Assembly (NCBI RefSeq): GCF_037042905.1
Contig: NC_087251.1
Location: 4,156,001 to 4,220,000 of the forward strand
Reading direction: 5' to 3'
Origin: Lytechinus pictus
Taxonomy: Eukaryota
DNA: 64,000 nucleotides
In this document: piece after piece, positions 14,914-61,420 of the stretch
Layout: each line of letters begins with the position of its first letter
How positions within the stretch are numbered: the first letter of the stretch is position 1
Program-made: the position numbers and the translations under genes
Notes under the pieces: generated by a model
Seen by the model: the letters and a program-made list of their open reading frames with translations, nothing else
Told to the model about the DNA's origin: nothing
The model's database searches: none

Positions 14914-15030
14914 TAAAAGCTAGGCCGTTATCATTCGCTACATAGTCATTTGTAAAAGACTATATAATTTTGATAAGAAGGTAGTCTGTTTCGCGTTTTT
15001 AATCAATATTGATTACAATTCCGATAAACG

Positions 15031-18000
15031 ATGGGTTGTATTCTATCTCGGATGGGTTGTCTTTTCACTGAGTGCATGACTGTCGAGAGTCCGTCAAAGC
15101 TGTTAATGATTGGTCTGGATGCAGCAGGTATACTGAAGCTCGAATCTTATTTCTTTATATTAATTCAACAATTTACTTCAAAAGTAAGATGCCTATTTAT
15201 CCAAGTCCCTCTTTCAGATTTGATATCTGCACTTGAGAGTATTAGGGGGAAATGGTGGGGGTGGTGGTCGGCCGAATATCCACAGAGTGAGAGCAATTAA
15301 TTTATTCCAAATAGCCTATATGTTACCTCTCAGCCCTCGCAATCGGTCTATGGGAATTCTATGAATAAGGCTCACATTGATGTAAATTAATCGTTGAATA
15401 ATAACATTATACCACATGATTATTCTATCAAATTGACAGGAAAGACCACAATTCTATACAGGCTGAAGCTAAGTAAAACCGTGACAGTTATCCCGACCAT
15501 CGGATTCAACATCGAGACCATCACACCGGGACCAGGTCTAACATTCGACGTCTGGGATATTGGATATTCCGAAAAACTCAGACCACTATCGAAACATTAT
15601 TACCCTGGAACACAAGGTAAGGACAACATGGCTTTAATTTATTGTTGAAAATTGATGTTACTGTATGTAGTTGTCACTTTAGGCTGCATGAGTGACTTAA
15701 GTGGAATAACGTACCCTACTTTGTTTTATACAATCGTCTGTTAATTATTTTTTCAATATTGTTTTCCGTTTTAAAGGATTTATCTTTGTGGTAGACAGTC
15801 AAGACCAAGAGCGTTTCTCTGAAGCCAGAGAATTACTACACGATATGGTGTATGCTAATGAAATGGATGCAAATATACCAATCTTAATCCTTGCCAACAA
15901 ACAAGATCTGGCAGGTATGTTTGATTTTTTTTTCATTTCTTCTTTTTATTTTCAACATACCACTGAGAAATATAAAAATTCAAAACAATGAGCAGAAATA
16001 TTTACTGACACTTAAAATGTGAAGAATCCATAAAAAAGGAACACATAAATAAAAGGACAAGTCCACCCTAACATAAAGTCGATTGAAAAAACGAGAAAAA
16101 TCCAACAAGCATTTCATCAAAATCGGATGTAAGATAAGAAAATTATGACATTTTAATTTGTCGCTTAATTTCACAAAACAATTATATGCACGTCCTGGTC
16201 GGTATGCTAATGAGGCAGGCGCGTAGCCAGGGGGGAAGGGCGGTCGCCCCCCCCCCCCCCCCCAAAAAAAAAAAAAAACGTCCCCAAAAAGAAAAAAAAG
16301 GGAAAAAAGAGAGGAGAAAAGGAAAAGGGAAGGGAGGAAAGGGAAGAAAGGTAGCTTTTTTTTTTTTTTTAATTCTTTATTTTTTTCTCAAAAGAGAAAC
16401 TCTTGCTCTAAATTTATATATGAATTTTGCTTCCGCGCTGCGCGCGGTTAAATGACAATATTAAAGTTCTCCATTGTTTCCCCCACCCTTTCTCTAACCC
16501 TGTTTTTCCACCTCAGCTATATGTGTTTCTTGCCAAGTTAAATGTACACATTAGGGCATGGAATTTTGAGTAAGATTAGGCCGAACTATATGAAGTTATC
16601 TTTTTTTTTTTATCGCGCAACTTCTGGTCGGGTCGGCTCCAGGCGGGTAAAATCAATATCTGCCGTCACCTCCATAAAGTCAACTTTTCCCGCTTTTCAG
16701 CTTAATACTAAACAACCATAATTTTGGGGCAAACAGGTTCCTAATTTAAAAAGAGGAAGGTATAAAATTCGTGTCGTATTAAATAAAAAGTACAATATTT
16801 GTATCGAATTCTATTAAACTTCATGTCATTTCCCTGCACATTCATCTCCTGTCCTGTTTTGCGCCCTCAGTTTGAAATTTTGAATGACACTTGAGATAGT
16901 TCAAAATGAAGCGCTTCAGGATAAGTCAAAGAAATTAGGCATCCTTTTTTATATAATTTCAATAAATCACAAAAGTTTCAACTTTTTGCGCACTATTTTC
17001 CTTGTAATGAAGTTCAATAATCTTATCAAATCAATTGAATTAGAGCCGATGGGCATGATGGGGTATTTCGGATATCTGCATTTTTGATGAAACGTCCGCC
17101 CTTTGAAATTTCAGAGTTTCATTGCTCTGCGCGGGGAGGAATATCTTCCTCCCGGCATATACATTTCTTCTCCTCTGTTTTGCGAGTTAAAGATATGCAC
17201 TGTCGCTAAATTGTAATCAAATCTGATCTTTCCAAGGGAAGTATTCAATGTATCTTTGAGAATACCCTTTTCTCGGGACCCTTTTCATGGCAAAAAAATT
17301 GATAACACGCTTTAGCTTCCGCGCTTCGCGCGGGTTTATTATTATTTTAATTTCCTCCATTGTATTCCTTTTTTGTGCGTTCACAATCATTTTTGAAAAC
17401 AAGGTTCAAAATCACAATATAGGCAACTGAATTGGAGCTGATATAGGTACTAGAGACAAGAGAGACGGCTCCTTTTCATTTTAATTTATGAAACACCAAA
17501 AGCTTCGCGCTTCGCGCGGGAGGGGGAAACTAGGGAGCGCGCTTCGCGCGCTCTGTAATCGTTGGCACGCTTCGCGTGCATTTACCGCCCCCTCCAAAAT
17601 GAAATCCTGGCTACGCGGTTGTAATGAGGATACTGATGACATCACTCACTATTTCTTTTGTATTTCATTATATGAAATATTTAAATTTTCTACTCATTGC
17701 CATGTGAAACAAAGTGTTATTCCTCCCTGAACATGTGGAACTACCATTGTTTTACAAAATTTTGGTTCAGTCAAGATGGTCATTATTGTCAAATCTGTAA
17801 AAAATGAAATATTTTATAATTCAAACAATAAAAACACAATAAATGGTGAGGGATGGACATCATCGACTGTCTCATTTGCATGTCACTGAGTTATGCATAT
17901 AACTGTTTTGTGAAAAATAAGCGAAATTTTAAAATGTAATAACTATCTTATTTTACATCCGATTGTAATGAAATTTTCAGTGTTATGCTTGTTTGATTTT

Positions 18001-18822: not shown

Positions 18823-19144
18823 ATATTATATATATATATAGGATATTATATATAAATATTATATATACTTCATTTTCTTAAGCAAGGGATTGCGGCTCAT
18901 TTAAATCGGACCTATATGAGCAAAAACTGAAAGCAAGACAAAATCTGTATTATTAATTACATTTTTCCTTCCATCTTATTTCCAAGGTGCACATGACGTT
19001 ACTAAGTTGATCGACGAGCTCCAACTCCGCGACCTTACCCAGAATCCTTGGCATATCCAAGGCGCATGCGCCACAACTGGAGATGGTTTGTACGAAGGAC
19101 TTATCGAATTATCAAACATGATCAGAGAATACAAGAAATCTTAA
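15031..19144 (+). CDS. ARF/ARL-family small GTPase, paralog 1 (atypical G3 motif); join(15031..15127,15440..15616,15777..15914,18987..19144), 189 aa
   Basis: All introns are GT-AG. Exons of 97+177+138+158 = 570 nt give an open frame [12 protein letters not shown]...GLDAAGKTT...IPTIGFNIE...WDIGYSEK...ANKQD...[10 protein letters not shown]...EYKKS*. G1, G2, G4 and G5 motifs and Gly2 are present. Confidence 0.93.
16054..18045. mobile_element. Kolobok-like family A element in intron 3 of paralog 1, split by a nested hAT element
   Basis: AGGACAAGTCCACCCTA ... TAGGGTGGACTTGACCT|TTAA. Confidence 0.85.
16216..17621. mobile_element. Non-autonomous hAT-like element with 8-bp TSD TAATGAGG
   Basis: TIRs CAGGCGCGTAGCCAGG / CCTGGCTACGCGGTTG (14/16 match). 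Exact TAATGAGG at 16208..16215 and 17622..17629. Confidence 0.85.
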
Positions 19145-26742: not shown

Positions 26743-27277
26743 ATGGGTTTATTAATGTCTCGGGTAATGACTCTCTTCAAGGATTGGTCTCAGGGAAGTC
26801 CTTCAAGAGTTCTTATGCTTGGTCTGGATGCAGCAGGTAGGTCTATCTTTTTTTGCATCTTTACGTCATTGTTTAAAATTATCATGATAATTTTTTTTTC
26901 ACTGTATGCATTATTACAACAAGTATGATCTGCTTCAAGTTATATATAGGAATATTTATAACATTGACCTCTTGAATAAAAGTACTGGAGCTAGTTAAGT
27001 AGGCATGATTTTTTTGTTTTTAAATGGAAGTAATGTTGGAGGTTATCAGGCTGACAAATATCAGAGATTGAATGTCGGAGGTAAAAATTTAAGAGGTATA
27101 TTGTCGAAGATTTAAAAAAAATATAGAAAAATAATGTCAGAAGCGCGGTGACACGGTGTTATTTCGTAAGAGCGCTATATAAATGAACATATTTATTATT
27201 ATTATTATTATTATCATTACTATTATTATTATTGTTATTATTAATAATTATTATTATTTATCATTATTATCATTATC

Positions 27278-27310
<33 letters not shown>

Positions 27311-29367
27311 GAATTATATTTACAGAAATAAAATGTTCAAAATAACTCATGTCGGAGGAAAAATTGAGCCGGATGTAAAATGTGTAGTGTCAGACGAAAT
27401 CGGCCAGGTAATAATATCACAGAGAGAGGAGGGGTTACTGATGGAAATAAAAATGAGCTTCTGATTAACTGAAGAGAATACATGTATTGCAGGGATGAGG
27501 AAGAAATGGAGGGGGGTCATGTATCTATTGCCTTGTAAATGTTAATGGATTTTTTAATTGTTCTTTTTGTTTCTAGGAAAGACTACATGTTTGTACAAGC
27601 TGAAGCTGAATGAAACAGTGACAACGATCCCTACCATAGGATTCAATGTCGAAACCGTGACACCAGTACCAGGTCTATCATTCACCGTTTGGGATGTAGG
27701 CGGTCAAGAGAAAATCAGGGCACTTTGGAGACATTACTACTATGGCACACATGGTAAGGATTATTATTTGATCTGAATTATTATCTGAATCTATTTTAGA
27801 ATTAGGGAATGCATAATTGTGTGTTTGTGCTTACTTAATGCGTCTATGAATTGGCCTACTGGAACCTTATTGACTTATCAATAAACCAAAATGGAAATTT
27901 GAGTTAAAAAAAAAACAGACAATAACATACATAGACCCGAATTATACTTTTTGTATGGAAATTGTTCATTTTTTTAAATAATAAACTACTGAGCATGACG
28001 ATCGAGTTTAATATAAATTCTTCAAAAAAAATTCAGTATAGCGAACAGCACTCTATAGGGGAAGGCGGGGTAAGTTGTGACACTTTTTGCTTTTAGCATG
28101 TTAGAATTGATATGATTAATAATCTTGTAGAAATAAGTACCTTGCCTTAATTAATTTTTCTGAAATATTTTTCACCTATATATAACTTTCTACCCCCACA
28201 CTGAAAGTCATTGTCACCTTTAAAAAAAGAGGTGTCAAATGGCTTAAATTGCCCCATCTGTGGGGTACGTTGAGCCACAAAAACTATGTACAAAATGTAT
28301 GGGGGAAGAACCGGCATGTCAATTTTTTATTTAAAGTCTTTTCACTAGCCAATTCTCTATAAATACTAACATCCTCTAAAAGGAAAAGATCAGTTATGTA
28401 AATTTGCTCCATTCTGTCTGCATATCGATGGCTTTTTAAGGTTTGTTTGTTTTTATATACATTACCATAAGAAATACCATGGCTCAACTTGCCCCATGTT
28501 GTCTGGCTCAACTTACCCCATTCCGAACTTAATGTGATAATTTCGCATCCACACATTTCTTATGCATCCATCATGTAAAAGACAAGAATGAAGATCCATA
28601 CCTGGACTAACAATGTTGTTCTTATGTCTTTATTATATTTAAAGACGTGTGTGTGTAAAAAGCACTTATCTATTTCTCACCCTTTTTACTTTTTTTTGCT
28701 GAAATCTGTATTTTTCCCTCTAAAAAAGTACTTTTTGTTTCAAAGTTGAAAACAATGTGGTGGGGTTAGGGGTTATGCAACGGGTCATCAATACATGACA
28801 CCACCACAATGTCTGACTCATTCATTATCGAACTGGGGGTGGTGGCTCAACTTACCCCTATGCTCAACTTACCCTGCCTTCCCCTAAGGTGCAGAATCTT
28901 AATTTAATTATTTTAATTCGCATGGCAGGTTGGAAATGGAGGAGGCTGCTAAAAAGCGGAGCTTGTAGAGTGCAGCCTCCTAATAAATATTTTTGTAATT
29001 ACATAGCATATAAAAATCAAAATAACAACTTGAGCATAAACCAGCTAAATAAAAAAATAAATAGGGGGAAATTAAAATAGAAAAGTAAATAAGAAAAAGA
29101 GAGATTAAAGGTCTCCAGAAGGACCTCGTTGATCAACAGGAAAACGAAAGAGATGGAACAGTGTGCGTCACATTATTTATATTCGTGTTTGATTTAAAAA
29201 AAAAGAGTTTGAGTGATGAAGAGTTATTTCAATGGTTATCTTGGAGAAACTTTTTGGAATTTAGGCTTGGTGATTCTTTGATGTTATTATCAATAGTTCC
29301 CCAGAGTTGCGTACCTAGGATTTTCCACAGGGGGGGGGGGCAAAATCGGCCGCCAAAAAAATTGACA

Positions 29368-29398
<31 letters not shown>

Positions 29399-30439
29399 GG
29401 TCTTCAAGCTCGTCTGGGGGGGGCATAAAAGGTCTTTCAAGTTCGTCAGGGGGGGCAGTGATATGTATTTTGTATGGGTTGTGGCTCGTCAGGGGGGGGG
29501 GCAGAGTGCCCCCTCTGCCCCCCCCCGTAGGTACGCTAGTGGTCTAGGGCCTTCAAAAATAAAAACTGATTTTGCAAGAATGGTCCGGGTTAGTGGTAAA
29601 TGGAATTCATCTGATTGACATGTGGGATATTTGTGAAGATGCGATATTGTATGTCAAATGTATAAAACAAACTGTGATTGTTGAAAATGGAAATAAACGA
29701 AATGAAAACGAAATGATTTTTTTTTTTCAGGTGTTATCTTTGTAGTAGACAGTCAAGATCGAGAACGATTCGCAGAAGCTCGAGGTGAACTGCTTGCTAT
29801 ACTACAAGCTCAAGAAATGACTGGGAACGTCCCTGTGCTAATACTTGCTAACAAACAAGATCTACCAGGTAGGCGATATACCTCACTCATTAAATTTTGC
29901 TATGAGAAAAACCCAGAATAATGCCACGAACGCGTGCATTATAATTGCATATTGAATATCCTTTTAAAGAAAGGTTGATACTTCACAATTTTTTCTTTGT
30001 ATTCGTATTGCAACTATTTTGTTTATATTTTGGATTATTCATGTTTATTGTATTTGCAAACATATTCTTATTTTACCATTTGTACTGAGAAATAAAAGCA
30101 ACCAAAAAAAATCTAGATAACTACATATTTATTTTCGATTAGAATAGGCAAACATTGGAAATGGATTTCTCCGATATTTTGGGTTTAATATTTCAAATAA
30201 TTTCAGATCTACCGTTTAATATCAATTCTAACCGTCATTTTATCTTCCCACATTTTTCATCAGGTGCACACGGTGTGACCAAATTGATTGACGAACTCCA
30301 ACTCCGAAATCTTACCCAGAATCCTTGGCATATCCAAGGCGCATGCGCCACGACAGGGGATGGTTTATACGAAGGACTCCAACAACTGTCCAAGATGATC
30401 CGAGAATTCAAGAAATCTGGAGGAAAGGTGTCCATGTAA
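26743..30439 (+). CDS. ARF/ARL-family small GTPase, paralog 2 (canonical motifs); join(26743..26836,27577..27753,29731..29868,30264..30439), 194 aa
   Basis: GT-AG introns, 585-nt open frame: MGLLMSRV...GLDAAGKTT...IPTIGFNVE...[17 protein letters not shown]...ANKQD...[14 protein letters not shown]...GGKVSM*. Confidence 0.95.
28058..28884. mobile_element. TA-flanked non-autonomous DNA transposon (TIR GGGGAAGGCGGGGTAAGTTG) in intron 2 of paralog 2
   Basis: TA|GGGGAAGGCGGGGTAAGTTG ... CAACTTACCCTGCCTTCCCC|TA. A second, inverted copy lies at 49225..50522. Confidence 0.85.
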
Positions 30440-39021: not shown

Positions 39022-42000
39022 ATGGGTAATGTGGTTAACAAGTTCACGAGTGCCTTTGGTGATTGGTCCAAAAACCCTACGCGTGTTCTCATGCTAGGCC
39101 TCGATGCTGCTGGTGAGTTCTTTATTGGTATTCTTGTGATCCTGCCATGTACCCGTTTTCATTTGATCGTATTGATTTACTTTTAATGGGCCTATACATT
39201 GAACGTACATAGATCTAGATAATACCTGTAAATAAGTACTTGTAGAAGTTTCTAGTGTGCTCTGACCACCAAGTGCTAATAGTATGGTAGAAAAGGAATG
39301 GGGTAAACTTCCTGAACATGGGAGGAAACTGTAAAGAAATACAAATTTGATATTTAAAACCCTGAAACAATCTAGGCTTGACTGCTTGTATGATGTTGTA
39401 ATGAGATGTAACATTCACATATCACGTGAATGATGTCTAAGTGGTAGAAATGGGAAGAAACTTTGCATATAAAATATGGTGTGGCTCAAATACAGGACAA
39501 TTTTAAAATAATAAAATGATATTGTGATTACAAAATAATACAGCAGTTTGGTGTTGACTATTATATACGTGATCATTATAAATGTTGTGTTGCATAGGGA
39601 AATGTGAACCAGCTTTATATCATGTCTATACAGCTCCGCTCACAATGATAGGGGGTATGAAGATGACATCTATAGGGGTTCCCCCTGAACTATTTATACA
39701 TTTGTTAGCTCTCGTGTGCATTGATGTGCAATGATTATATGAAGGAAAAGAAACACACTAAAACTGAATTCTTTCTGAATGTGTTACAAAACCAACTATT
39801 CGGGTATGTGTGTGGAAATAATGATATTTCTTCCGCATTTCGCGTTTCAGTGGTTTACATGTAGTATATTGTCAGCGCTTTGGATTGTATACACCTATCA
39901 TAGTTTCTTAGGAGTAAACAAAAAAGGAGGAAAAGAAAGAAAGAAAAAAGAAGTGAATAACATTACAGCACCTATACACTTACATTACATCATTAATTAG
40001 ATATGTAATTCCAGTCAGAATTTGACTCATGAAAAAATAACTATCAATCGATGGCCCATGGGTGCAAGTTCAATTCAATTCAAATAAACATTTATTTTCT
40101 TCTATTTCATTACATTTTTCGTAAACATTAATTCATACAAAAATCAATTATTATGAAGAATATAAATATATGTTGGGTTTAAAGAAGGAGGCGTATACCC
40201 TAAAGTTATGTCTTCTCACCCGCCCCTTCTTTACCAATCCGTCACTGTCAGTTCAAAGTCTGGCTTGTATACAGTGCGTCCCACAAAAAGGACATCCGTT
40301 TTCAGAGATAGATTTCACATTTATCAAATATGTTTTTACTATAAATTTGATACTCATGGCAAGAATGGGATCTCATCTCTAATTTGAAACCAACAGCTTA
40401 GCAAATCGTTCACGCATGGCAGCTTACAAACAATAAATATTGAGGCATATCAGAAACGATTTGCGCAGAAAATCACGTGTGAATCTGAATCCACTCTAAT
40501 TTTAGGGATCAGCGAGAGACTCTTAAAGGGGTGGTCCGGGCTGAAAATATTTTTATCTTAATACATAGAGTAGAATTCACTGAGCAAAATGCTGAAAATT
40601 TCATCAAAATCGGCTAACAAATAATAAAGTTATTGAAGTTTAAAGTTTAGCAATATTTTGTGAAAACAGTCGTCATGAATATTCATTAGGTGGGCTGATG
40701 ACGTCACATCTCCACTTTCCGTTTTCTTATGTTATTACATAAAATCATAATTTTTTCATTATTTCATACTTGTGTGAATAATATGTCTCCCTTATAATGA
40801 AATAAGTTGCAGCAATAAATATCTAATGCACTAAATCAGTTGTCAATCCAATTTTTCTAGTTCTTGGAGGAAAAAATTTGAATAAACCTAATTTCATATA
40901 ATAAAATACAAAAGAACAAGTGGAGATGTGACATCATCAGTCCACCTACTGAATATTCATGACGACTGTTTTCACAAAATATTGTTAAACTTTAAAATTC
41001 AATAACTTTGTTATTTGTTATCCGATTTCGATGAAATTTTCAGCATTTTGCTCAGTGAATTCTACTCTATTTATTAAGCTATCAATACTTTCAGCCCGGA
41101 CCATCCCTTTAACAAAGAATACAAAGAAATGCTAATGAGCGAGCAAATCTTGTCCAATGTTTCTGCGCAACCTGCTTTTTGCATTAACATTTCAAACACG
41201 TCTTGTCCATTAATGTGTTAAATGTTCATCTCATATTAGGTATCAAAATAAAGAGGAATAGTTGAATTATATGATTATGTGAATGAAATATCATAATTCA
41301 ATTCAATTTTCAATTCAATTTTATTCACATCTCTTTAAAAACATCAAAAGATCAAGTTTATTCAATACAAAATACAACATATATTATAAATAACATTATA
41401 AAAGAAATGGTAAAGTTGAAGGGAGGAGGATGTGGGGGATAAACAAAAGGCCATTGGCCTGTCAAGGTAAATCCTCGAATTTACCCCACTTCAAAAAATA
41501 ATACAAAATAACACATTACGAACACACAAACACACACTGTAATTGTAGAAAACATAAATTGGAATCCCGGTTTCCCCTTTTTTCTGGGACATACTGTATC
41601 AATTCATTATACTGGGATAAGTTACTTTGATATAAAAGGAAGTTTCTATCATAATTTGTCAAATCAATTAAACATGTTATGGGGGAGCAAATAAAAAATA
41701 CATAGTAATTCCAGAAGAGACCTTTATTGGGTTGAATGTATATAACCACTTAGACTTACAAAAGATTTGCATAATTATGTTTTCAAGTATATAAACAAAT
41801 ATATAGAGCGACATTATTGAACCCGAAACCGAAAATAGTTATGCAGCTTATAGTATGTTCTGTTGGATCATTAACACATTGTTCGTACCATTTAGTATAT
41901 CTTAAACAAAATATAATTGTTTTTATTGGGATTTTTTTAATGATTAAACCAACTAAATGTGAGATATGGTTGCTAATAATGAATAACACGAGATCAGTCC

Positions 42001-43667
42001 GATAACCAATCTCTCAAAATAATATCATTGAAAGTTCTTTAAACTCATCTATTATTTAAAAGTAATAAATAGACTCATATTAAATAGCCATTATCATGGA
42101 ACAAATTGATTGCAATATAGTTTTCGATACCTGCAAAACAGGAAAAATATAAATCATTGGGAAAATTCCATTTAAAGAAGAATTGAAAACGCAAAATCCT
42201 GATCGTTATATACAGGGTCAAACGCATGTTAATAATTTTTTTTTCTCCAAAAATCAATGAATGTTAGGACTATTAACTCATTTCCATACGCCATTGTTAA
42301 TTAACCAATAACTTCCTGATCCCTTGTTGGTAACGAGTTAATAGTGTCACTGAACTAGTTGAACATGATGTTTATGATGGTGTTTATGATAATGATGGTG
42401 GTATAAGTAGTAGTTGTGGTATCGTAAGCGGTATATTTTGATGACGGATACTAATTTTGGACAACTGGCCATGACGACGACGATGGAGATGATGACGACG
42501 ATGGCTTTTTTGCGGTGATGGTACATGGTACTGGTAGTGATAGCGGCAGTGTTTATGGTGGATGGTTGTGTTAGGAGATGAAGATGGTGGTGGTGGAGCC
42601 AAAAGTGTGATAATGTTCATGATGATGATGGCAGTTTAAGACTGTAATAATTAATCAAATCCTGTTCTATCTTCTAACCAGGTAAGACTACAATCCTATA
42701 CAAGCTGAAGTGTAATGAGACTGTTCAAACCATTCCTACCATTGGGTTTAATGTAGAGACAATTACACCCGTTCCTGGTCTAACTCTCACGGTATGGGAT
42801 GTAGGTGGTCAAGAAAGACTCAGGGCGCTATGGAGGCATTACTATGTAGGCACTGAAGGTAAATATACTTACTCTTTCATGGCGTATCACAATAATTATT
42901 TACCCAGGGTAGCCACTCTCAGCTGTAAGCTGTTCTTCCAGCGGGTCCTGCATAACCCTTCTGAATTCTCATACGTCGAGCGCCTGACAACAAGGCAGAA
43001 GTTCCAATTTTTAGAAGTCTTGGTATGACTCGTATAAGAAAAAATAAAAATAAAAGATATATAGTCCCTTGTATTTTTAGGGGGTGGTGTATTAGTTGCG
43101 CCATTTATAAACACATGGAAATATAACGTAGATTCAAAATAATCATATTATGTTGAGGAAAACATAAACAGCCTTGGACTTGTTTTTATACCAATACAAA
43201 CAGGGTCAACAATATATTTTAAGCTTCCCATTTGAATCAAAGTTGAAAAAAAATATAGCTATGTATAAAATAAGATTAAACGTTTTTTTACCAAGGCAAA
43301 GTCAAGCGCAGGAATATCTTTTATGTTGTGATCCATAATGATTGCCTTTAAAATAATATTGTGTGCAAGTTGATTTTAAACAGGCCATGAAGACGTAGAT
43401 CATGTTAAGGGCAAGGCGGTATATATATATACAGTATATAAACAAAAGAAGATCTAATAGAAACGCCGCGAGGAGACATAATCTTCCAAATTTTCGGTCA
43501 TAGACCTTTTTCAGGGATGATTTTATTAAATCCAAAACAGGTTGCATCATTTGGTGATGATACCAACGCGCAATAAATACATTGCGCAACAACATAACGC
43601 GGCAGGTGCATTGTTAGAAGACATTGTGACGTAATGAGTAAAGTCCAGGCAACTATTATGACGTAGA

Positions 43668-43743
<76 letters not shown>

Positions 43744-46700
43744 TCAGAAATCAGAAATGCGAAACAAATTCACGAGTAATGCAGTTTTTGAAGTGCCAAC
43801 AATTAAGTTCTTTTATTCACTCTCCAAATTTTCGGTAGACATCTACCTTCTTCACAATTCACAATTCACGAATCTTCCCTGAAGAAGGTAGATGTCTACC
43901 GAAAATTTGGAGAGTGAATAAAAGAACTTAATTGTTGGCACTTCAAAAACTGCATTACTCGTGAATTTGTTTCGCATTTCTGATGTCTTATTATTATTAT
44001 TGCCAATACGTGGAAAACCAAGATGCTTATATATATATATATATGTATATATATATGCGTCATCTGTTGAGTTGGCCTCGCCTCAACTCAACAGCGATTG
44101 GTAGAAGTAAACTTATCATCACACTATATACTGATATATATATATATATATATTATATGCCCCTTTTGGACCAAAATTTAACATATGAATTAGTTCCCTG
44201 TGGTTACTAATGTTTCTCCATTCGCCATATGGAAATGAAGATGGAAATATGTCCCTTCTTGAATTGATGGTATTTTTGTCATTTTTTATTGCAATTATGT
44301 CCTTTCAGGCATCGACAATATACCATTTTTTTTTGCTTCTAAAAGGGGTGGATCCGTTTTCTGCGCCACGTTTCCCCAATACTAGATCTGTCCCCAGCAA
44401 CATCTTAGCATCATATCATTATACCCACGTAGAAACCAAGTACAGATCATGAGCTTCTCCTCAGATCATAATACATACTTCCTTCCCTATATAAACACTC
44501 GACAAGCTATGAAAGACATAATACTTCCATAGAATGTATAGCTATGGTAGTAGGTGATGAAAAAAAGCTAAAAAATCGTTTATGATTGTTCATTGCTATA
44601 CGACCGCTACAATTTACACTGAGAAAAAATGAATAAAACTCTGTAAAAGTGTGTTTATACCATGTATAAATATATAACATTATTCTCAGATGATTTATCA
44701 AGTCATGTTTATGTATGACGAAGTATTCATTGCTCATTTATCATATACATGTACGTAATTTCCTGAATATTATTCTTAGAGTAATGGTCATTTTATATAC
44801 ATTAAAGGGAATTATGAGATTAAAAATATGCTACAGTGGTTGAATCTAAACACAGGGGCAACACTAGAAGAGCAGGGGCGATAGCCCCTATGATTTAACA
44901 AGTTAAAGCATATAAAGAAGAGAAGGGAAAAGAGAGAAGGGGGAAGAAGTAAAGTATCTAAAATAAAACTGTGTCTTGTAATTCTGTATTACCTTGTTAT
45001 TCAAACTTACGTCACTTTTAGGTTGTTTTGCCACGCCCTCTCCGTTTCAAACTACCCTGGCGCCGCTCTATTCAATTCAATTCAATAAAAAATTCAAATA
45101 AAAATAAAAATATTTAGATAAAATGTAAAATAATATAATATATGCATAAATGTAGCAACACATACAACAAATAAATATAATTTATACATTCATGTAAACC
45201 TCATAATTATATACGTTTGGTAATTATTGGAGCATATGGGGTTATTGCCTATCTCCCAAATACCCCCTTCACCCTGCCCAGTACACTATAGTGGTGACGT
45301 CACTAGTTCCCTGTGAGTTGCAGTCAAACTAGTTTATGTTGCACTTATCGAAATGATACTCCATTTTACCCTTTCTTACTAAGAAACTTAATATACATAA
45401 GAAAAGGAACACATGGACATTTTGTAAATCTCACACTTATCACAGTGAAAAGTGTCGGTAATTGACGTAAATATGATATGGAAAATGTAAAATGTCTCTA
45501 GCTTGTAAAGATTGTGTAATTCATTTCGGAAGAGATGTGAAAATATTTAGCAATGAATTATGAATGATCTTCCTAAGTGCTCTAAAAAAAAATGAAGGCA
45601 ATGTATATAGGTCACTGACGTCTACGCTTAATTCTGTTTGTGTTTATTTTATTATCTGCCTTTTTTTAATGCAATTCATTAAAGTCAATTGATAGCCATG
45701 TATAGTGCAAGATTTATTTGTGCAGATTGTTATTCCGAGGGGCAATAACGCGATTTCAAATGTTGAGCTCTGTGTCCAATGTGTCGTGTGATTGCCTCCT
45801 TTATTTTGACTGATCAAAAATTTCACTTTTTGTATAGACGAATATTATGAACACGGAACTCTAATTACACGCTCTGGCCCACATAATAATGGAGGGGTGG
45901 TGGTGGGTGGGGGCTTTGGGACCATCTCGTAGGAAAAAAGGAGAACAGTAAAGAAGATGTGTAGGATATGTTGATTTTTATGAATATTATATCAAAATCT
46001 AATACAAATTAGATTGCTATTTCGAAAAAGTCATTTTTACTCGCTCGGGACTTTTAAGAAATATTGCCACGCACGCCATGCTAAAAAGTTTGGGTACATT
46101 TGCATTGGCGGATCAAAGGAGGGGGGGGGGGGGTGGGCTGAAAGAAAAGTGTGATAAAAAAAAGACTATAAAGTGTGTATATATTTTTGTATCCCCACCC
46201 CTGGCGTCGTGGTTAGAGTAGATTCCTTTTTTCCACGGGAAACTCACAAATGTTGTGACCTTTTTCCTCTGTGTTTGACATCATTTGTAATGGGTTAGTG
46301 GTGACGTTTTTTCTCTGTGTTTGACATCATTTGTAAAACGTTATTAGGCCCAATTTTTGCCCCATTTCCTCAGATCCGCCACTTTTATTTTACGATGTCG
46401 CACATTACACCAAGCAAACTGACTTTGATTCATGATTATTTGACTCAGGACCTTGCTCAACTCATTGGGAATCTGCAGTGTCGTACAGATGGGAGGGCTT
46501 GTAGGGCGCTTTGCCCCCCCCCCCCCCAAAAAAAAAAAAAAAAAAAAACAGAAAAAAAAATCACTATAAAAAATAGAAAAGGAAAGACAATCAAAGAGAG
46601 AAGGGTGAAATGTGATATTATTTTCTGAATATAATGTCAACATTTATCACAAAATTTGTTTTTTTTTTTTATTTTAAATATGTCGATTTTTGGCTCGCTT

Positions 46701-49700
46701 CACGACAAATTCGGCCCCCTCACAAATTTTGGGTCATTACGCCACTGAGAATTTGAGACTGAAGTTTTATTATCCCATCGACGTGCTTCGACATAAATTT
46801 AATTCGCTATAATTAAAACATTACTTCAGACTTCAAAAATAAATGACGTGGGTACGTTTTGCCTATTTGGAAATACGATTTGTTTCGGTTATATTTGGTA
46901 ACTTGAAATAGGAAAATAAAGCACTTAACATTTTAAATTGCTTCCTTCATTTGAATAAAACCACTCAATGCGGTATCGCTCGAAATTGAAACATCATTTT
47001 AATAATTAATGGAAAGTAACAATTGGCAAAACATCCATCTTTGAAGGACGTAATCTTCGTTGGAGATTTCCCTTGATTTTTTTCTTGTGAACAATACCTT
47101 AGACATGTTGAAAGCGACTCGAGTGCAGAAGCAGAAGGGGGGGGTGAGAGTAAGTGTGTTGATTAATTGTACGATACAATACGATCTTACGGGGTGTTAC
47201 CAAATACTTCCTAAATTATCTTCTCATTTGTTTATCACTTGACTCGAGTATAAACAGGACTGATATTTGTCGTTTGCCGCGCTAAAATCAAGACGGTATA
47301 AGTTTGTAATTTTATCGTTCATACTGATACTGCAATTGTTATTGTACATTTGTAAAATAATCTAATGAAATCAATTTTACCAATTCTATCAAATTACTCC
47401 TTGAAAAGGGATCACAGGTTTGGTATGAAAGCTTGGTAAAAGTTATAATCATCCCAAAAATAATTTGTGTAGCCCTCGATATGGTAGATAATCAGACAAA
47501 TAAGTAAAACCTTCATATTAATCTGCCATATTCATGATCTGCGTTAGAAGGCAAACTCTGTAAGCCCATATTATGATTTGACTTGATATGAGATTGGCAA
47601 GCATTTTACATCCCAAGCCTATATTGTCTGTCGAACAGTAAAGGTAGTTTCTTATAACCTATTAACAGTGAAACTGGGATCATTCGGAAAAAGGAAGTTC
47701 CTGGACCTATTGGGGAGGAAGTGATGAATTCCTGCCAACCCACCATGCCCACAATAAGACTACCTGAAACAATATTAATTGGTCATCGTTGTCAATATAT
47801 ACCAGTACAGTGTAAGGTATCTTTCAATTTCAATTCAACTTTGCTAAAAATACTTCGAATGATTGAATGATACCTCAAGCGAGAAATTGGGAGTGCGTTA
47901 TTCATGTTTTAGGGCATTTTGTATAGCATGAAATAAATTTCATTATTAGAAATGTGAAACAAGTGAAATGGAATTTATTAAATGAAAATATAGGACTGGA
48001 CAAAACTTTAATGAAAGTGCATTAAAGCTATTAACATTTTTCTCAGAACTAATTTGATAAATAATTGCCCACAAAAAGTCCATGTGACTCCAATTTTCAG
48101 TCTTTGCAAAGGCTTGCATCAGGAGTACCAGTTTCTAAATAACTCCCTGGGAACAGTATGCTGTCAAAGTATGCCATATGATTAGTTTCGTTTTTGGAAT
48201 ATAAGTCATAAAAACATAACTATAAAACAATATATTCACAGTGCTTAAACCATTGCTCAAACCACTTGACTTTGACTTCAAGAATTCACTTCAAATGGAC
48301 AAATACCCTTTCTCCTAGATAAAAAGACGTATATTCAGTAATTAATCACTGAATAAATTGAGGTTCAATCGTGCATTATTATATTTAAAAATGAAATGCA
48401 ATGATCTAACAAACCTATCGATGAATTGATGTGAGGGGCTAATACCCCTATACAACGGCACAGCAAATTATCGATGCGAGTAGATCGCGGTTACTTCATT
48501 CAAAACAGAGTATCAATATATGAATAGCAATGGGCATTTTTTTTTTATATTCAATACCGTTTATATTGTCATGGTAGTATTACAACGTAATTAACAATCT
48601 GTGATTAGATAAAATGGTGGCTATTATAGCTTATTGTGTAAGAAAATTCAGATATTATTTGGGTTTTAATAAACGTATTTAATTTTGATGAAAATATTTT
48701 GATATGATTTAAGAATGGTGATTACAGCTTTAGATATTTATTATTTGTTCCAGGGGCCTATATCACGAAATTCATCTTCATATATTTGGATAGAAAGGCA
48801 TTTCCAGCCTTGACTTGGAATTTCTAACTTACTAACAGAGTAGCAATGCCAAGAATAAAACTAGTTCAACACGTTTTAGGGATTATACACAGTAAAACGC
48901 TTAATATTAATGAAGGCCTGGTCCCACTGGCCGACGGACACAAAACGATACCGGGTACAGCGGACAAGCAAAATTTCGGAGGTGGCTCTATCCGTTTTCA
49001 TCCGCTCCAGGCAATGGACAAAATGGGCGAACAATGAAATCACAGTGTCGGGACGGATGCTAGAGCGTTTGAAACGTCGTATGCAAAGAGTACAAATCGG
49101 ATGCATATAACGTTTTCCAATGGATGGCAAGATTCTTTTCCGTTTTACATCCTGTCTGCATCCGTAAGTGCAGTGGGACCGAGTCTTAACAATTTGACAT
49201 TTTTGATGTATGAACTGAGAAGTAGGGGAAGGCTGGGTAAGTTGAGCATAGTATAGGGGTAAGTTGAGCCACCACCCCAGGCCAATAATAAATGAGTCAG
49301 ACATTGTGGTGGTGTCATGTATTGATGACCCATTACGTAACCTTTATCCCCACCACATTGTTTTCAACTTTGAAACAAAAAGTACATTTTTAGAGGGAAA
49401 AATACAAATTCAATTTTTACTTAATTTCACAAAACATTTATATTCACATCCTGGTTGGTATGCAAATGAGGGGACTGATGTCATCACTCACTCACTATTT
49501 CTTTTGTATTTCATTATATGAAGTATGAAATATTCCAATTTTCTCCCCGTTGTACTGTGAAAAAAGTTGTATTCCTCCCTGAACATGTCGAATTATCATT
49601 GTTTCAAGTTAACATTTTTATGGTTCGGTCAAGTTGGTCCTTATTGTCAAATCTGTAAAAATTGAAATATTGTATAATTCAAACAATACAAAAAAAGAAA

Positions 49701-52700
49701 TAGTGAGTGAGGGACGTCAACGACTCTCATTTGCATGTCACTGAGTTGTGCAAATAACTGTTTTGTGAAAAATAAGCGAAATTTTAAATTTTCGTAACTT
49801 TCTTATTTCATATCCGATTTTGATCAAAATTTCAGCGTTATGCTTGTTTGATTTTTCTCTTTTGATTAAAATCAACATTTTTCTGGGGTGGACTTGACCT
49901 TTAAATATAATAAAGAAATACGAACAATATTGTTAGCCCAGGTATGGATTATCATTCTTGTCATATATAGTTTTTTACATGATGGATGCATAAGAAATGT
50001 ATGGATGTGAAAATATGCATTAAGTTCGGACTGGGGTAATTTGAGCCAGCCAACATGGGGCAAGTTGAGCCAAGGTAATTCTTATGCTAATGTATACTAA
50101 TAAAAAAAACTTAAAAGGCCATTGATATGCAGGCAGAAAGGAGCAAATTCATATGACATTTCTTTTACTTTTAGAGGATGTTAGTATTTATAAAGAATTA
50201 GTAAGTGAAAAGACTTTAAATAAAAATTTGACATGCTGGTTCTTCCCGCATACATTTTGTACATAGTTTTTGTGGCTCAACTTAACCCAGAAGGTGGCAC
50301 AACTTACCCCACAGATGGGGCAAGTTGAGCCATTTGACATCGGTTTTTTTTTCAAAGGTGACAATGACCATGATGATTTTCAGTATGGGGGTAGAAAGTT
50401 ATTTGTAGGTGAAAAATATTTCTTTAGAATTAAATTTAAAGGCAAGGTACTTATTTCTACAAGATTATTTGTCATATCAATTCTAACATGCAAAATGTGT
50501 CACAACTTACCCCGCCTTCCCCTACTGTTTGTGCAGGTTTTAAACGAAAGTTTTGACATGTAGGGCCTAAACAGCAATGTCCAGTTCTGAAATTAATTGT
50601 TTAAAAATGAACTTCGTATTATTTTTTGAAAATTATTCAAACGTATTCAAACTGTAAGAATTGCCCATAACTTCATAAAGTAAATCAGGTCAAAGGCCTA
50701 CAGATGGGGGACCTTGGGGTGTTTGCCACAAACAAATTTTTACGACCAAGTAACAAAGGAAGGAAAAGAAAAGGGTGAAATGTCATATTATTTTCTGAAT
50801 ATTATGTTAAAATCTATCACAAAATTTTATTTTTGTACTAAAAATGTCGAAATATTTGCTCGCTCGCAACTTTTTGTGTGTAAATTTTGCCCGATATGCC
50901 AGACCTGGCGCCCTCAGAATTTTGGGCTCATTATTCCACTGAATCAGGTTGTTTGAATTTATATACTGTAGATTGTAAAGATTGTACAGTGTAATTTGTC
51001 TTTTAACTCCATAATAGTAATAGTTATACTCCATCTATAAAAAAAAAAACCCGAGGCATTCAAAATTTTTCATCTTAAAAAAAAAATTAAATGGTTAGTT
51101 GTGGGCTACCCATACAATCGCGTCTTTTGCACAAAATTATTTTGTTTAACGATTATTATGATCTTTCATTATTTTAACCCAACAATACAGTTCAACAATG
51201 AATAACTTTATCAAAAAATAAATTTTGGCTGTAGGAATCAACATCCTGATTGCAGAATAGTATACTGGTATAGCGTATAATATGCACACAACCCAAGTAT
51301 ATATGTCTAGCTGTAAAACATTATATGCCTACAATATTCATAAGTGAAACTAGCATTGTGAAAGGTTAATGAGATTATATTTTGTCATTAATAACAGTAT
51401 GGCCTATAGGGCATAACGAGTGGATGTTGATGGTGGTGGTGGTGGTGGTGAGGGGAATGGAGGGGATATGTTACAAACACAGAAAGGGCAAACTGGATTT
51501 TTGAAATAATTTTTTACTTCTATTCATATAATTCCTTATTATTTTGTGTACGTGTGAAAGTATCCCAGCTGTTGTTCGGGATCTTATCTGCATGAGTCTA
51601 ACCGTTATTTTAACCTGCCTTTCAACAGGAATCATCTTTGTAATAGACAGTGCAGATCAAATGAGATTCTTGGATGCAAGAGAAGAATTATTCAACATGT
51701 TGAATTCAGATGATATCTTGGATGGTACACCGCTTCTTATACTCTGCAACAAGCAAGACATGAGCGGTAAGATTAGTCTTTTATTTCTTTGGCCTAATTG
51801 ATAGGATTTGGGGCAGACGAGTTCTTTTTTTCACAAGAGATTTATTTTGTGACACCATAATATTTTTCATTATTCCAAACCTTTGACAGATTCATTACTT
51901 TTTAAAAGGCAGTAATAATGCCCTGGATCGAAAACTCAGTCACCTCAGCATCCAATTGCACTACTGGTTTAATTATACAATAATTTCTCATAAAGGACAG
52001 GAGGCATGATGATATACCTATATCTCTTTATCCTTAGACAAAATATTGAATTAAAAAAATATTGGGTGTGACGGTTTCCAGAAAATCAATTGTGCTCCCT
52101 CAAATATTTTTCAAGCACCTGAGAGTCGCAACCAGTTGAAAATATTTGCGGTAATCGGTAATGGGCAAAAGTCGTAAGGATATGGAACGTTTTATCATTC
52201 TGGAAATCATTGAAACTGATAATGCCTGAATTAAAAGGTGGTGCTGGTAGTTTTATCTAGCAAAGATTTTTCACCTAATTACTTTTTCTTTTGTCTTCAT
52301 AAATAAATTACCTTTCTTGTCAATGGCAATACACTTTCCGTTCATTTCCGATATATCAACGTTGTTGTTTTTTGTTTTACTTTCCTTTGTTTCTAAATGT
52401 TTTCCGGGATTGTTTCAATTTCTAACCATCCCAGCCTATGACCTCCGTTCAAAACGAATGCTTAAAATAATTCGATTGAGTTATATTTCTTTTAAGTTGA
52501 ATCTGATTTGAAGTAAATGAACTGTTAAAAGTTAATGGAAGTTAAGATGAAAATAGGAGATTGAATTATTTCATTCTTCTTAATGTCAAGAAAAAGTTTT
52601 CCAAAGACATTATCAGTACATGTTGGGTACACGCATTTAAATTCAGTCTTGTTTAAACAGTGCAAAGTTTACTCCATTCATTCCAGACAACTTGAAATGG

Positions 52701-54418
52701 GGCCGGAGGAATCCTCCTTTAACTCCCTTGCAAGTTTCATAAGATGATACTCTATGAGTTACAACTCTCAAAGTGTCTACATGTAAATTAAGTAGATTAT
52801 TATTTAGTTTAGAAACATCACTTTCAAGAGCTGCATGCCGAAATTCTCGAATCAACAGCCTGAGTTGGAGTGTATATAGCCATATAGTTTTTACTTGATC
52901 TCATGAAATCATAATGAGCTCTGTTAGTTGTGGATTGATTCAGCAAACATGATAATTGTCAGTAAAACACGATGCACAGCTCTAAACTGCTAGATTTCCC
53001 TTCTGAAAATAGAGCAAGATAATCAATGCACAAAGAAATGAAGCTATCCTAGAAAATTTCAAGTTAATATTTGGTCAACTCCATCCACCACGTCCATTTC
53101 GACAACCATTTGCCAGTGCTGACAACCTACATAAAATGCTGCACAGGTAGGCGTTTCCGGGGCGTTTCATGAAATTTGTCAGAACTGACAATGTCAGTGA
53201 ATCCTTGGTTTTGATTTGATTTGATTTGATTTATAGTTTTCTTCTGCATCCATGGAACATTCGTATAATACATTTTCCATAACATAATAAACATGATATG
53301 TTAGCATTTTTGGCATGAATCATAAATAAAGTGTATTAAAAAAGAATAATAATAATTCCAGACAAAAATGATTAACTACCAAATTATTATATGATATTCA
53401 CAATTTGCAGGAGGATTGTCATCATAAGCAGATTGCTTGAAGAAAAATGACAAATTGGCTTATAAGCACTGGCCTCTGACTGTTACTATGGTAACTGCCT
53501 GAAAATGACAGCTAGGTTGTTTGGATAAAAATATTTTGTAGGATAAAACATCGAAAAAGTCCTTCCATGAAATGATAACTTGATCTATTTGCTCTCATAA
53601 AGGGATGCACCGGGCTAAAAATATTCATATCTTAATATATAGAATAATATTCATAGATCAAAATGCTGAAAATTTCATCAAAATCGGATAACAAATAACG
53701 AAGTTATTGAATTCTAAAGATTAGCAATATTTTGTAAAAACAGTTATGCACTTCGTCATGAATATTATTAGGTGGGCTGATGATGTCTCATCCCCACTTT
53801 TCTTTTTCTTATGTTATTACATGAAATCATAATTGTCTAATTTTTTCATAAATGTGTAAATGATGTGTCTCCATTATGGTGAAATAAATTGCAGCAATGA
53901 ATAACTAATGCGCTTAATCAGTTGTCAATCTAATTGTTTTAGTTCTCGGAAGAATATTTGTAAATATATCCAATTTCATATAATAAAATACAAAAGGACA
54001 AGTGGGGATATGACATCATCAGCCCACCTAATGAATATTCATGAAGACATGCCAACTAACTGTTACACCAAAATAATGCAAATCTTTAAAATTCAATAAC
54101 TTTGTTATTTGTTATCTAATTTTGATCAAATTTTCCGCACTTTGCTTTGTGAATTTTACTCTATTTATTAAGATATAAATATCTTCAGCCTGGAGTATCC
54201 CTTTAAATATATTTTCTCTCATTCTTTCAGAAGCCGAGTCAGTCTCGAGGATCAGTGAGACCTTAGATCTGAAGAGGATCACTAAGAACCCTTGGCATAT
54301 CCAGGCCATCTCAGCATTAAGTGGAGAAGGACTTCTTGAAGGAATGACCAAAATTGCCAAAATGGTCAAGAATTTCAAAAAAGAGAACATGAAGAAAGAT
54401 CATGCATCGTCTTCGTGA
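39022..54418 (+). CDS. ARF/ARL-family small GTPase, paralog 3; join(39022..39112,42682..42858,51629..51766,54231..54418), 197 aa
   Basis: In-frame TAG upstream of the ATG, GT-AG introns, 594-nt open frame: MGNVVNKF...GLDAAGKTT...IPTIGFNVE...[17 protein letters not shown]...CNKQD...ISALSGEGL...DHASSS*. Internal exons are 177 and 138 nt, as in paralogs 1 and 2. Confidence 0.93.
40272..41596. mobile_element. Tc1/mariner-like non-autonomous element in intron 1 of paralog 3, host to a nested MITE
   Basis: TA|CAGTGCGTCCCACAAAAAGG ... CCTTTTTTCTGGGACATACTG|TA. Confidence 0.65.
40527..41108. mobile_element. Kolobok-like family B MITE (nested)
   Basis: TTAA|AGGGGTGGTCCGGGCTGAAA ... TTTCAGCCCGGACCATCCCT|TTAA. 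Confidence 0.88.
43485..43517 (-). ncRNA. Degenerate hammerhead-like motif (core G8 changed to A)
   Basis: Reverse complement reads TCC-CTGAAAA-A-GGTC(tat)GACC-GAAA-ATTT-GGA. Confidence 0.45.
43669..43741. repeat. (TA)n microsatellite
   Basis: About 36 perfect TA units. Confidence 0.95.
43750..43984. mobile_element. Penelope-like element remnant: 105-bp inverted arms with a 25-nt spacer, flanked by (TA)n
   Basis: 43750..43854 is the reverse complement of 43880..43984. It contains a hammerhead motif, with TA tracts on both sides. Confidence 0.6.
43873..43918 (+). ncRNA. Minimal type I hammerhead-ribozyme-like motif (Penelope-like)
   Basis: CTGAAGA-A-GGTAG(atgt)CTACC-GAAA-ATTT-GGA. Stem I is TCC/GGA, extendable by TTCAC/GTGAA. 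Stem III is the loopless palindrome AATT. Confidence 0.65.
46476..46747. mobile_element. Small hAT-like MITE
   Basis: CAGTGTCGTA ... TACGCCACTG, with flanks GGAATCTG / AGAATTTG (decayed 8-bp TSD). Confidence 0.5.
48914..49186. mobile_element. PIF/Harbinger-like MITE
   Basis: AGGCCTGGTCCCACTG ... CAGTGGGACCGAGTCT with TGA/TAA flanks. Confidence 0.6.
49225..50522. mobile_element. Inverted copy of the 28058..28884 element, carrying a truncated Kolobok-like family A insert (about 49415..49900)
   Basis: TA|GGGGAAGGCTGGGTAAGTTG ... CAACTTACCCCGCCTTCCCC|TA. The insert ends GGGGTGGACTTGACCT|TTAA. Confidence 0.85.
53601..54202. mobile_element. Kolobok-like family B MITE in intron 3 of paralog 3
   Basis: ATAA|AGGGATGCACCGGGCT ... 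AGCCTGGAGTATCCCT|TTAA. Body is similar to 670..1269 and 40527..41108. Confidence 0.85.
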
Positions 54419-61311: not shown

Positions 61312-61420
61312 ATGGGGCATGTCATGGGAAAATTATCGGATATTTTGAGTGTAGATTGTAGATTCCCGATCAACGGTGACAGAGAATCAAGGATATTAAT
61401 GCTGGGTCTAGATGCAGCCG
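61312..61420 (+). CDS. ARF/ARL-family small GTPase, paralog 4, first coding exon only (remainder not in the window)
   Basis: [37 protein letters not shown] followed by a GTAAG donor at the same phase-1 P-loop position as the other paralogs. No exon 2 was seen before 64000. Confidence 0.85.

Follow-up and report, generated by a model that had tools for sequence, protein, structure and literature searches.

A putative non-switching pseudo-GTPase in the tandem Arl19 cluster of the sea urchin Lytechinus pictus

The window analysed here—64,000 nucleotides of contig NC_087251.1 from the sea urchin Lytechinus pictus (assembly GCF_037042905.1, positions 4,156,001 to 4,220,000)—contains a tandem cluster of ARF-family genes of the Arl19 group, the first of which, designated paralog 1, has lost the DxxG glycine, the catalytic glutamine and the tryptophan of switch II and is followed downstream by three canonical paralogs (2, 3 and 4). 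The reading towards which we lean is that paralog 1 would be a lipid-anchored, nucleotide-binding and non-hydrolysing pseudo-GTPase with a disabled switch II, i.e. a maintained static membrane adaptor and not a Q71L-like active form. As far as its phylogeny tells, Arl19b (paralog 2) was duplicated in tandem to give this gene before Lytechinus and Strongylocentrotus separated, and the copy has probably been maintained as a non-switching adaptor on the membrane and is not dying out.

Altered and retained residues

The gene consists of four exons separated by three GT-AG introns, at positions common to paralogs 2–4, and its 570 coding nucleotides give, in an open frame, 189 residues and a stop codon, the model being identical to XP_063957785.1 (P0002). 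As stated in a preliminary description of this DNA, the codons from position 15553 read TGG GAT ATT GGA TAT TCC and those from 15586 CTA TCG AAA CAT TAT, so that WDVGGQ has become WDIGYS—the same residues being present in the L. variegatus protein—and LWRHY has become LSKHY, whereas WDVGGQ is retained in paralogs 2 and 3, and likewise in paralog 4. The DxxG glycine and the catalytic glutamine of a canonical switching ARF are thus replaced by Y75 and S76. Among 148 homologues (alignment A4) this glycine and glutamine are conserved in 99% and the tryptophan in 97%, figures that are somewhat high, the alignment having been hand-chosen without P0047, P0009, P0120 and the glycine-lacking rows of a vertebrate clade. 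In the motif wDvGGqXXXRxxW the glycine pair provides flexibility and the arginine and tryptophan form hydrogen bonds of the active state (PMC2063696; for this and all the other papers cited, statements refer to the portions of the text or supplement available). Paralog 1 lacks the second glycine, the glutamine and the final tryptophan of this interswitch-toggle signature and keeps the arginine; in terms of the W/GG/R residues, two of the four are gone, in addition to the catalytic glutamine.

The same description called the gene otherwise intact, which holds for the frame, the splice sites, GLDAAGKTT, T52, NKQD and CAT, but not for the sequence as a whole, 13 of the 67 columns conserved at ≥90% among the 148 homologues being changed. 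They include two in switch I (E45K, T49V), one in β3 (T69D) and one in α3 (E111L). Retained are G1, Thr52 of G2, Asp72 of G3, NKQD of G4, CA(T) of G5, R80 and F55/W71/Y86, the last three of which we take to be the aromatic triad. All direct contacts to the guanine, the α- and β-phosphates and Mg are kept; none of the 14 nucleotide-contact columns has changed, compared with 13 of the 53 other conserved ones (p = 0.055). With the hydrolysis motifs (Gly, Gln) lost, and the G-domain and binding motifs kept, paralog 1 would by its sequence fall among the class II pseudo-GTPases.

Its membership in the ARF family is evident from the Pfam profile PF00025 (Arf), which it matches with 183.8 bits against a cut-off of 22.3, as well as from the N-terminal extension, Gly2 and the aspartate (D30) at ARF1 position 26 (criteria in PMC2063696). 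A structural model predicted by AlphaFold from a 150-row alignment has the full ARF G-domain with a predicted local distance difference test score (pLDDT) of 85; an alignment of just 12 rows gave a poor structure (pLDDT 60). Foldseek placed the former model at a root-mean-square deviation of 1.3–1.6 Å from the forms of ARF1 and ARF6 bound to guanosine triphosphate (GTP) and 4.2–4.4 Å from most of those bound to the diphosphate (GDP); the model confirms the fold only, its GTP-like shape being driven by the canonical homologues and hence given no weight as to the nucleotide state.

Concerning the N-terminus, three cysteines—Cys3, Cys10 and Cys15—have been gained beside the kept Gly2; three are found in L. 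variegatus, too, and none in Arl19b. Within residues 2–16, cysteine occurs in none of 164 canonical Arl19-type proteins, as against three in paralog 1. Both myristoylation and palmitoylation are known in other members of the ARF family (10.1101/2020.10.31.363457). The 164 proteins are those with DxxGQ among 173 distinct ones surveyed (170–215 residues, Arl19-type interswitch spacing, a filter that missed the paralog 1 pair and P0102); eight of the remaining nine lack the glycine (a single cluster accounts for four of these), and in no case is its place taken by an aromatic residue. No closer protein of the paralog 1 type was present among the best 150 matches of a 50%-cluster search.

These features suggest the following mechanism. 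Paralog 1 would be myristoylated and palmitoylated and would hence reside on the membrane without the GTP-driven myristoyl switch. It would bind a guanine nucleotide, being unable to hydrolyse GTP or to respond to the GTPase-activating proteins (GAPs) of ARFs, and its switch II could neither read the γ-phosphate nor settle into the canonical active conformation; its surface would consequently not follow the nucleotide state. In that case it may work as a static adaptor on the membrane by way of switch I and the interswitch, its control lying in expression or acylation instead of cycling driven by exchange factors for guanine nucleotides (GEFs) and GAPs. Mutants of other families at the same glycine are instructive in this regard: KRAS G12D/G60R loses its intrinsic GTPase activity and the binding of both NF1 and PI3K and has a reduced SOS exchange (10.1101/2024.10.22.618529), and the Gα variants G203A/G226A fail to activate (10.1101/2020.11.15.383679); a disabled switch is therefore favoured over a Q71L-like state or a GEF trap.

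The Arl19 cluster and the origin of paralog 1

The protein of paralog 2 differs from XP_001199912.3 of Strongylocentrotus purpuratus in 11 of 194 residues, and XP_001199912.2 is named SpuArl19b in the supplement of PMC8358228 (Vargova et al. 2021); with SpuArl19a and SpuArl19d being similar to paralogs 3 and 4, respectively, the cluster is assigned to Arl19. This is a holozoan group of the ARF family (10.1101/2020.10.31.363457; PMC8358228), albeit as a whole not a resolved clade according to its authors (10.1101/2020.10.31.363457), and no function was found for it in the available text of the literature on the group (10.1101/2020.10.31.363457, 10.1101/2025.10.27.684887).

The L. variegatus orthologue of paralog 1 (P0011, a full-length model) is 95% identical to it, being separated by nine substitutions and a two-residue indel, and shares both WDIGYS and LSKHY; an assembly error behind the changes is unlikely, an independent protein carrying the same residues. 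The G3 change is preserved in full in L. variegatus and in part in S. purpuratus, the copy of which has WDVGFQ and LWSHY, i.e. an aromatic residue at the glycine site with the glutamine and tryptophan kept. The clade formed by the paralog 1 pair and the S. purpuratus copy has a support of 95/96 in one tree and 89/94 in another, and paralog 1 nests within the Arl19b clade (95/98) together with the protein named SpuArl19b. A duplication restricted to Lytechinus (p = 0.034 in the approximately unbiased test, p-AU) and a separate one in S. purpuratus (p-AU 0.032) are rejected. Because of this grouping, and with these alternatives rejected, both the duplication and the glycine-to-aromatic replacement are older than the split of the two genera, for which a statement in PMC11586663, used as a proxy, gives some 45 million years. 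For the split within Lytechinus, no date or number of synonymous substitutions per synonymous site (dS) was found in the literature, including the available portions of PMC13134332 and PMC13745590. Compared across the three species, the order of loss was the glycine first, replaced by an aromatic residue (which is Phe in S. purpuratus and Tyr in the two Lytechinus species), and the glutamine and tryptophan later, in the Lytechinus line. The stem measures 0.33–0.39 and the tips 0.025, corresponding to a burst followed by slow change. One of the two S. purpuratus models (P0047/P0131) carries its C-terminal half twice.

The preliminary description also pointed to a tandem GGATATT in the altered stretch as a hint of slippage or a templated event. 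The repeat is real and mildly unusual: an exact 7-nucleotide tandem occurs in 31 of 1641 39-mers of the window, and 20000 synonymous shuffles of the altered stretch yield one in 1.9% of cases, i.e. about 2% by chance for a feature noticed after the fact. Slippage is, however, not needed to explain the glycine loss, since WDVGFQ of S. purpuratus is already aromatic with the valine kept; it is the Val-to-Ile codon of paralog 1 that creates the first repeat unit. In the later Phe-to-Tyr/Gln-to-Ser change, a templated step may have been involved.

Selection on paralog 1

Across codons 17–189, paralogs 1 and 2 differ with a dS of 0.83 and a nonsynonymous rate (dN) of 0.18, the dN/dS ratio being 0.22 overall, 0.36 in exon 2, 0.19 in exon 3 and 0.07 in exon 4; with so little change in paralog 2, the branch of paralog 1 itself would have about twice the pairwise ratio. 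In simulations of neutral evolution, which ignore indels, 3000 runs at 0.2 substitutions per site left an open frame in 10 cases, and 3000 runs each at 0.3 and at 0.4 left none. The dS of 0.83, the ratio of 0.22 and the open frame therefore indicate long purifying selection, and neither a broken frame, splice site or start nor neutral evolution, as expected of a pseudogene, has been found. Changes on the stem are rarer in the conserved columns (11/67 versus 39/122; p = 0.025); the avoidance of these columns by the differences between the Lytechinus species is not significant (p = 0.12).

The nine changes between the orthologues are too few for neutrality if the neutral divergence is ≥4% (P = 0.037 at 0.04 and 0.0007 at 0.06). 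Heterozygosity within L. variegatus alone amounts to 2.9% (PMC9557091), and the 3-to-11 ratio of differences in paralog 2 suggests, as a rough estimate, a between-species dS near 0.2. A present-day constraint on paralog 1 is thus likely, although not proven. Contigs of eight sequencing runs from two studies contain 0.28–0.37 of the words in positions 15000–16000, near the exon-only share of 0.364; this can be taken only as a hint, about 3% of allelic DNA divergence giving a similar share. In exon 4, a run of 41 nucleotides (19034–19074) is identical in paralogs 1 and 2 despite a synonymous difference of about 50% (p = 0.005 from codon shuffles of the exon), which is possibly a gene-conversion tract.

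Weighing of the alternative explanations

Several observations weigh against paralog 1 being a maintained adaptor of the kind proposed. As to lipid anchoring and nucleotide binding, the canonical paralog 4 also has a cysteine (Cys16), and motifs do not prove binding, since in ARL14, which keeps them, binding of a nucleotide could not be detected (PMC12722892). Of the exons compared pairwise, exon 2 shows the highest dN/dS ratio. Between the Lytechinus species, paralog 1 has changed at 9 of 189 residues (plus the indel), compared with 4 of 391 in paralogs 2 and 3 together (p = 0.012), and these nine changes would fit neutrality at a neutral divergence of ≤3% (P = 0.22 at 0.03). Selection for the Tyr/Ser/Ser residues themselves is not established, because at a difference rate of 5% a few switch residues would match anyway, and gene conversion from paralog 2 could have helped to keep exon 4 intact. 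Finally, switch I is incomplete in both S. purpuratus models, 16 residues being absent there, the G2 threonine among them, and a homologous exon 1 is missing too, so that this copy looks either decayed or mis-modelled or mis-assembled and may be a pseudogene.

That relaxed selection is letting paralog 1, as a redundant duplicate with no present function, drift into a pseudogene is nevertheless improbable. The missing switch I in both S. purpuratus models would agree with drift, and so would the absence of that copy from the SpuArl19 a, b, d and e in the available portion of the PMC8358228 supplement, whose authors omitted putative pseudogenes, the 13 of 67 conserved columns changed and the rate exceeding that of paralogs 2 and 3; against this stand the frame, splice sites and start, all intact after a dS of 0.83 with no neutral survival at 0.3–0.4 per site, the long stem with its short tips and the paucity of the nine changes at ≥4% neutral divergence. 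We also regard as unlikely a constitutively 'on', Q71L-like copy, always GTP-loaded and membrane-bound and engaging the Arl19b effectors without being switched off. The glutamine is indeed lost with G1, G2, G4, G5, R80 and F55/W71/Y86 kept, a permanently anchored protein would have its N-terminal helix lifted from the core (mechanism in PMC2063696), KRAS G60S and G60E are weakly transforming (10.1101/2024.10.22.618529) and ARL11 has been proposed to be constitutively GTP-bound (PMC12722892). With a bulky residue at this glycine, however, G12D signalling is suppressed and PI3K is no longer bound (10.1101/2024.10.22.618529), the Gα mutants do not activate (10.1101/2020.11.15.383679), and W78, a stabiliser of the active form, is lost in a protein whose switch I carries E45K and T49V.

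There is still less to be said for an atypical yet cycling GTPase with slow hydrolysis or with a dedicated GAP supplying the catalytic residue in trans: ARL10, ARL13A/B, ARL15 and ARL16 do lack the glutamine, binding and hydrolysis persist in class III proteins, RGK for instance (PMC12722892), and all nucleotide contacts are kept in paralog 1, but the glycine, glutamine and tryptophan have all been lost together, and KRAS G12D/G60R is left with no intrinsic GTPase activity at all and does not bind NF1 (10.1101/2024.10.22.618529). A dominant-negative sink or decoy, trapping an ARF GEF or an ARF-targeting pathogen effector and so dampening or protecting paralog 2, is very improbable. It could draw on the kept hydrophobic switch I stretch IPTIGF, on the burst of change after the duplication and on several bacterial effectors bound to ARF1/3/6 in solved structures (judged by the structure titles); SOS engagement is, however, lost in KRAS G60R (10.1101/2024.10.22.618529), and no positive selection is seen, the pairwise dN/dS being below 1 in every exon. 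Of what the preliminary description proposed, a hydrolysis-deficient or non-switching pseudo-GTPase beside active paralogs thus finds support in the orthologue residues, the dN/dS of 0.22 and the rare survival of a neutral frame, while the behaviour of the KRAS and Gα mutants leaves constitutive signalling or a decoy less supported.

Comparison with known systems

Within the Arl19 group, the member closest to paralog 1 is SpuArl19b. Paralog 1 is about 70% identical to the Arl19b orthologues and shares the four-exon structure of paralog 2; the Arl19b proteins differ by having WDVGGQxxxRxxW and no N-terminal cysteine, whereas paralog 1 has lost the G, Q and W and gained three cysteines. Closer in its losses is SpuArl19e (XP_001175949.1), with its orthologue in L. 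pictus: it is an urchin Arl19 paralog without the DxxG glycine and the glutamine, with an MGAC start and an intact frame. It is distinguished by a branch of 1.64, Asp/Trp instead of Tyr/Ser, GLNGAG as G1, NKQE as G4 and a location about 16 Mb off on the same contig. SpuArl19e is included in the supplement of PMC8358228 without comment in the portion available.

The atypical human ARLs are likewise ARF-fold proteins departing from GDP/GTP cycling, the switch II glutamine being absent from ARL10, ARL13A/B, ARL15 and ARL16 and nucleotide handling being aberrant in ARL11 and ARL14 (PMC12722892); N-terminal palmitoylation is used by ARL13, ARL15 and ARL16 (10.1101/2020.10.31.363457). They belong, however, to other lineages, and are described in the available text with the loss of the glutamine and not with a bulky aromatic residue at the DxxG glycine plus the loss of W78, nor as young duplicates beside an active parent. 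Pseudo-GTPases of classes II and III (RND and RhoH; RGK) resemble it in binding a nucleotide without hydrolysis or normal cycling (PMC12722892), with the difference that the class of paralog 1 is predicted from sequence only. Members of RND, RhoH and RGK belong to the Rho/Ras branch, have C-terminal targeting and lack the interswitch toggle; in the RGK proteins the DxxG glycine is replaced. In KRAS G60R and Gα G203A/G226A the same glycine is altered and hydrolysis along with effector or GEF engagement, or the activating change, is lost (10.1101/2024.10.22.618529, 10.1101/2020.11.15.383679), yet these mutants come from disease or the laboratory and from other families, whereas paralog 1 is natural, occurs in two species and carries further changes.

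The literature search, which had most subscription journals outside its coverage, found no paper on paralog 1 or any glycine-lacking Arl19. Atypical ARLs and the classes of pseudo-GTPases are already established (PMC12722892), and paralog 1 is not unique, Arl19e being present in a published dataset, which limits the reach of the finding. If the proposed reading is true, paralog 1 offers a natural two-species test of the ARF fold without the DxxG glycine, the catalytic glutamine and W78; with a 70% identical active parent adjoining and the partial form WDVGFQ in a third species, the steps from a switch to a pseudo-GTPase would be directly testable in an urchin used in the laboratory. It would also bear on how atypical ARLs work without cycling (PMC12722892).

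Other glycine-lacking Arl19-type proteins

The orthologue of SpuArl19e mentioned above is an intact 201-residue gene (loci L042/L043, G000:C7:20507588-20519250, minus strand) with LDLGDW in place of WDVGGQ, GLNGAG, NKQE and MGAC; its G3 is that of SpuArl19e, and with it this genome has two Arl19 genes without the glycine, this one being the older. The preliminary description missed this paralog as well as the Arl19 family and the gained N-terminal cysteines. A common origin of Arl19e and paralog 1 was neither recovered nor rejected (p-AU 0.25). The same applies to orthology between paralog 1 and P0141 from Diadema setosum (XP_072181625.1; p-AU 0.32–0.40). This protein is related to Arl19b; its G3 reads LVVGSG, with the Asp, Gly and Gln gone, and it carries Cys4 and Cys6.

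Among 36 hand-picked tree rows, the glycine is missing in ten, requiring six changes on the tree; a single origin of the loss is rejected (p-AU 3.6e-5), smaller unions of the glycine-lacking lineages are not (p-AU 0.07–0.47), and the origins may be as few as three. Cysteine within residues 2–16 is present in each of the three glycine-lacking types from echinoids whose N-terminus is complete (paralog 1, Diadema P0141 and Arl19e). We can therefore offer, rather tentatively, the idea that Arl19 duplicates repeatedly become switch-dead pseudo-GTPases through the loss of the γ-phosphate-sensing glycine, coupled in urchins to N-terminal cysteines as a convergent fixed lipid anchor replacing the myristoyl switch. 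Counter to this, the vertebrate cases and P0120 have no cysteine, paralog 4 with Cys16 is canonical, and the echinoid cases may share one origin.

The vertebrate cases fall among P0127, P0102, P0111, P0089, P0049, P0072, P0087, P0106 and P0115, which form one clade inside the Arl19-like group, a tentative placement, the tree having contained no ARL4/11/14 references. Apart from P0089, from Logan, these are proteins of coelacanth, lungfish, amphibian and reedfish, and some members have DVCSQ, DVCSH or DVASH. Vertebrates are without Arl19 according to Vargova et al. (10.1101/2020.10.31.363457).

Features of the window

The coordinates of the features are collected in Table 1.

Table 1 Features of paralog 1 and the neighbouring Arl19 genes (positions within the window)
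Feature	Position	Strand	Remarks
Paralog 1, exon 1: Met1, Gly2 (myristoylation-type MGxxxS), Cys3/Cys10/Cys15, β1, P-loop start GLDAAG	15031..15127	+	Lipid modification predicted from the sequence
Paralog 1, exon 2: GKTT, switch I (E45K, T49V; Thr52, Phe55 kept), interswitch (T69D), G3, switch II	15440..15616	+	
Exact tandem GGATATT ×2	15554..15567	+	
Tyr75 (TAT), at the DxxG glycine site (ARF1 G70)	15565..15567	+	Alignment to ARF1; Tyr in L. variegatus, Phe in S. purpuratus
Ser76 (TCC), at the catalytic glutamine site (ARF1 Q71)	15568..15570	+	Alignment to ARF1; Ser in L. variegatus, Gln in the S. purpuratus copy
Ser83 (TCG), at the switch II tryptophan site (ARF1 W78) of wDvGGqxxxRxxW	15589..15591	+	Alignment to ARF1
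Paralog 1, exon 3: β4, α3 (E111L), G4 NKQD	15777..15914	+	
Paralog 1, exon 4: G5 CAT, C-terminal helix, stop; 41-nucleotide run identical to paralog 2	18987..19144	+	
Paralog 2, canonical Arl19b, parent copy; exons 26743-26836, 27577-27753, 29731-29868, 30264-30439	26743..30439	+	
Paralog 3, canonical, Arl19a-like; exons 39022-39112, 42682-42858, 51629-51766, 54231-54418	39022..54418	+	SpuArl19a sequence in the supplement of PMC8358228
Paralog 4, exon 1, canonical, Arl19d-like; exons 2-4 past the window end	61312..61420	+	SpuArl19d sequence in the supplement of PMC8358228

Three database models join adjacent paralogs into double-ARF proteins, namely P0001 (paralogs 1 and 2), P0353 (paralogs 2 and 3) and P0134 (a pair from Acanthaster). 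Such fusions are probably annotation artefacts, since a stop follows exon 4 of paralog 1 and there is no GT donor at the junction in P0001. Elsewhere in the genome, an intronless open reading frame, Arl4-like by resemblance (L022, G000:C10:32315144-32315647, minus strand), has WDAGGA and is without the switch II glutamine.

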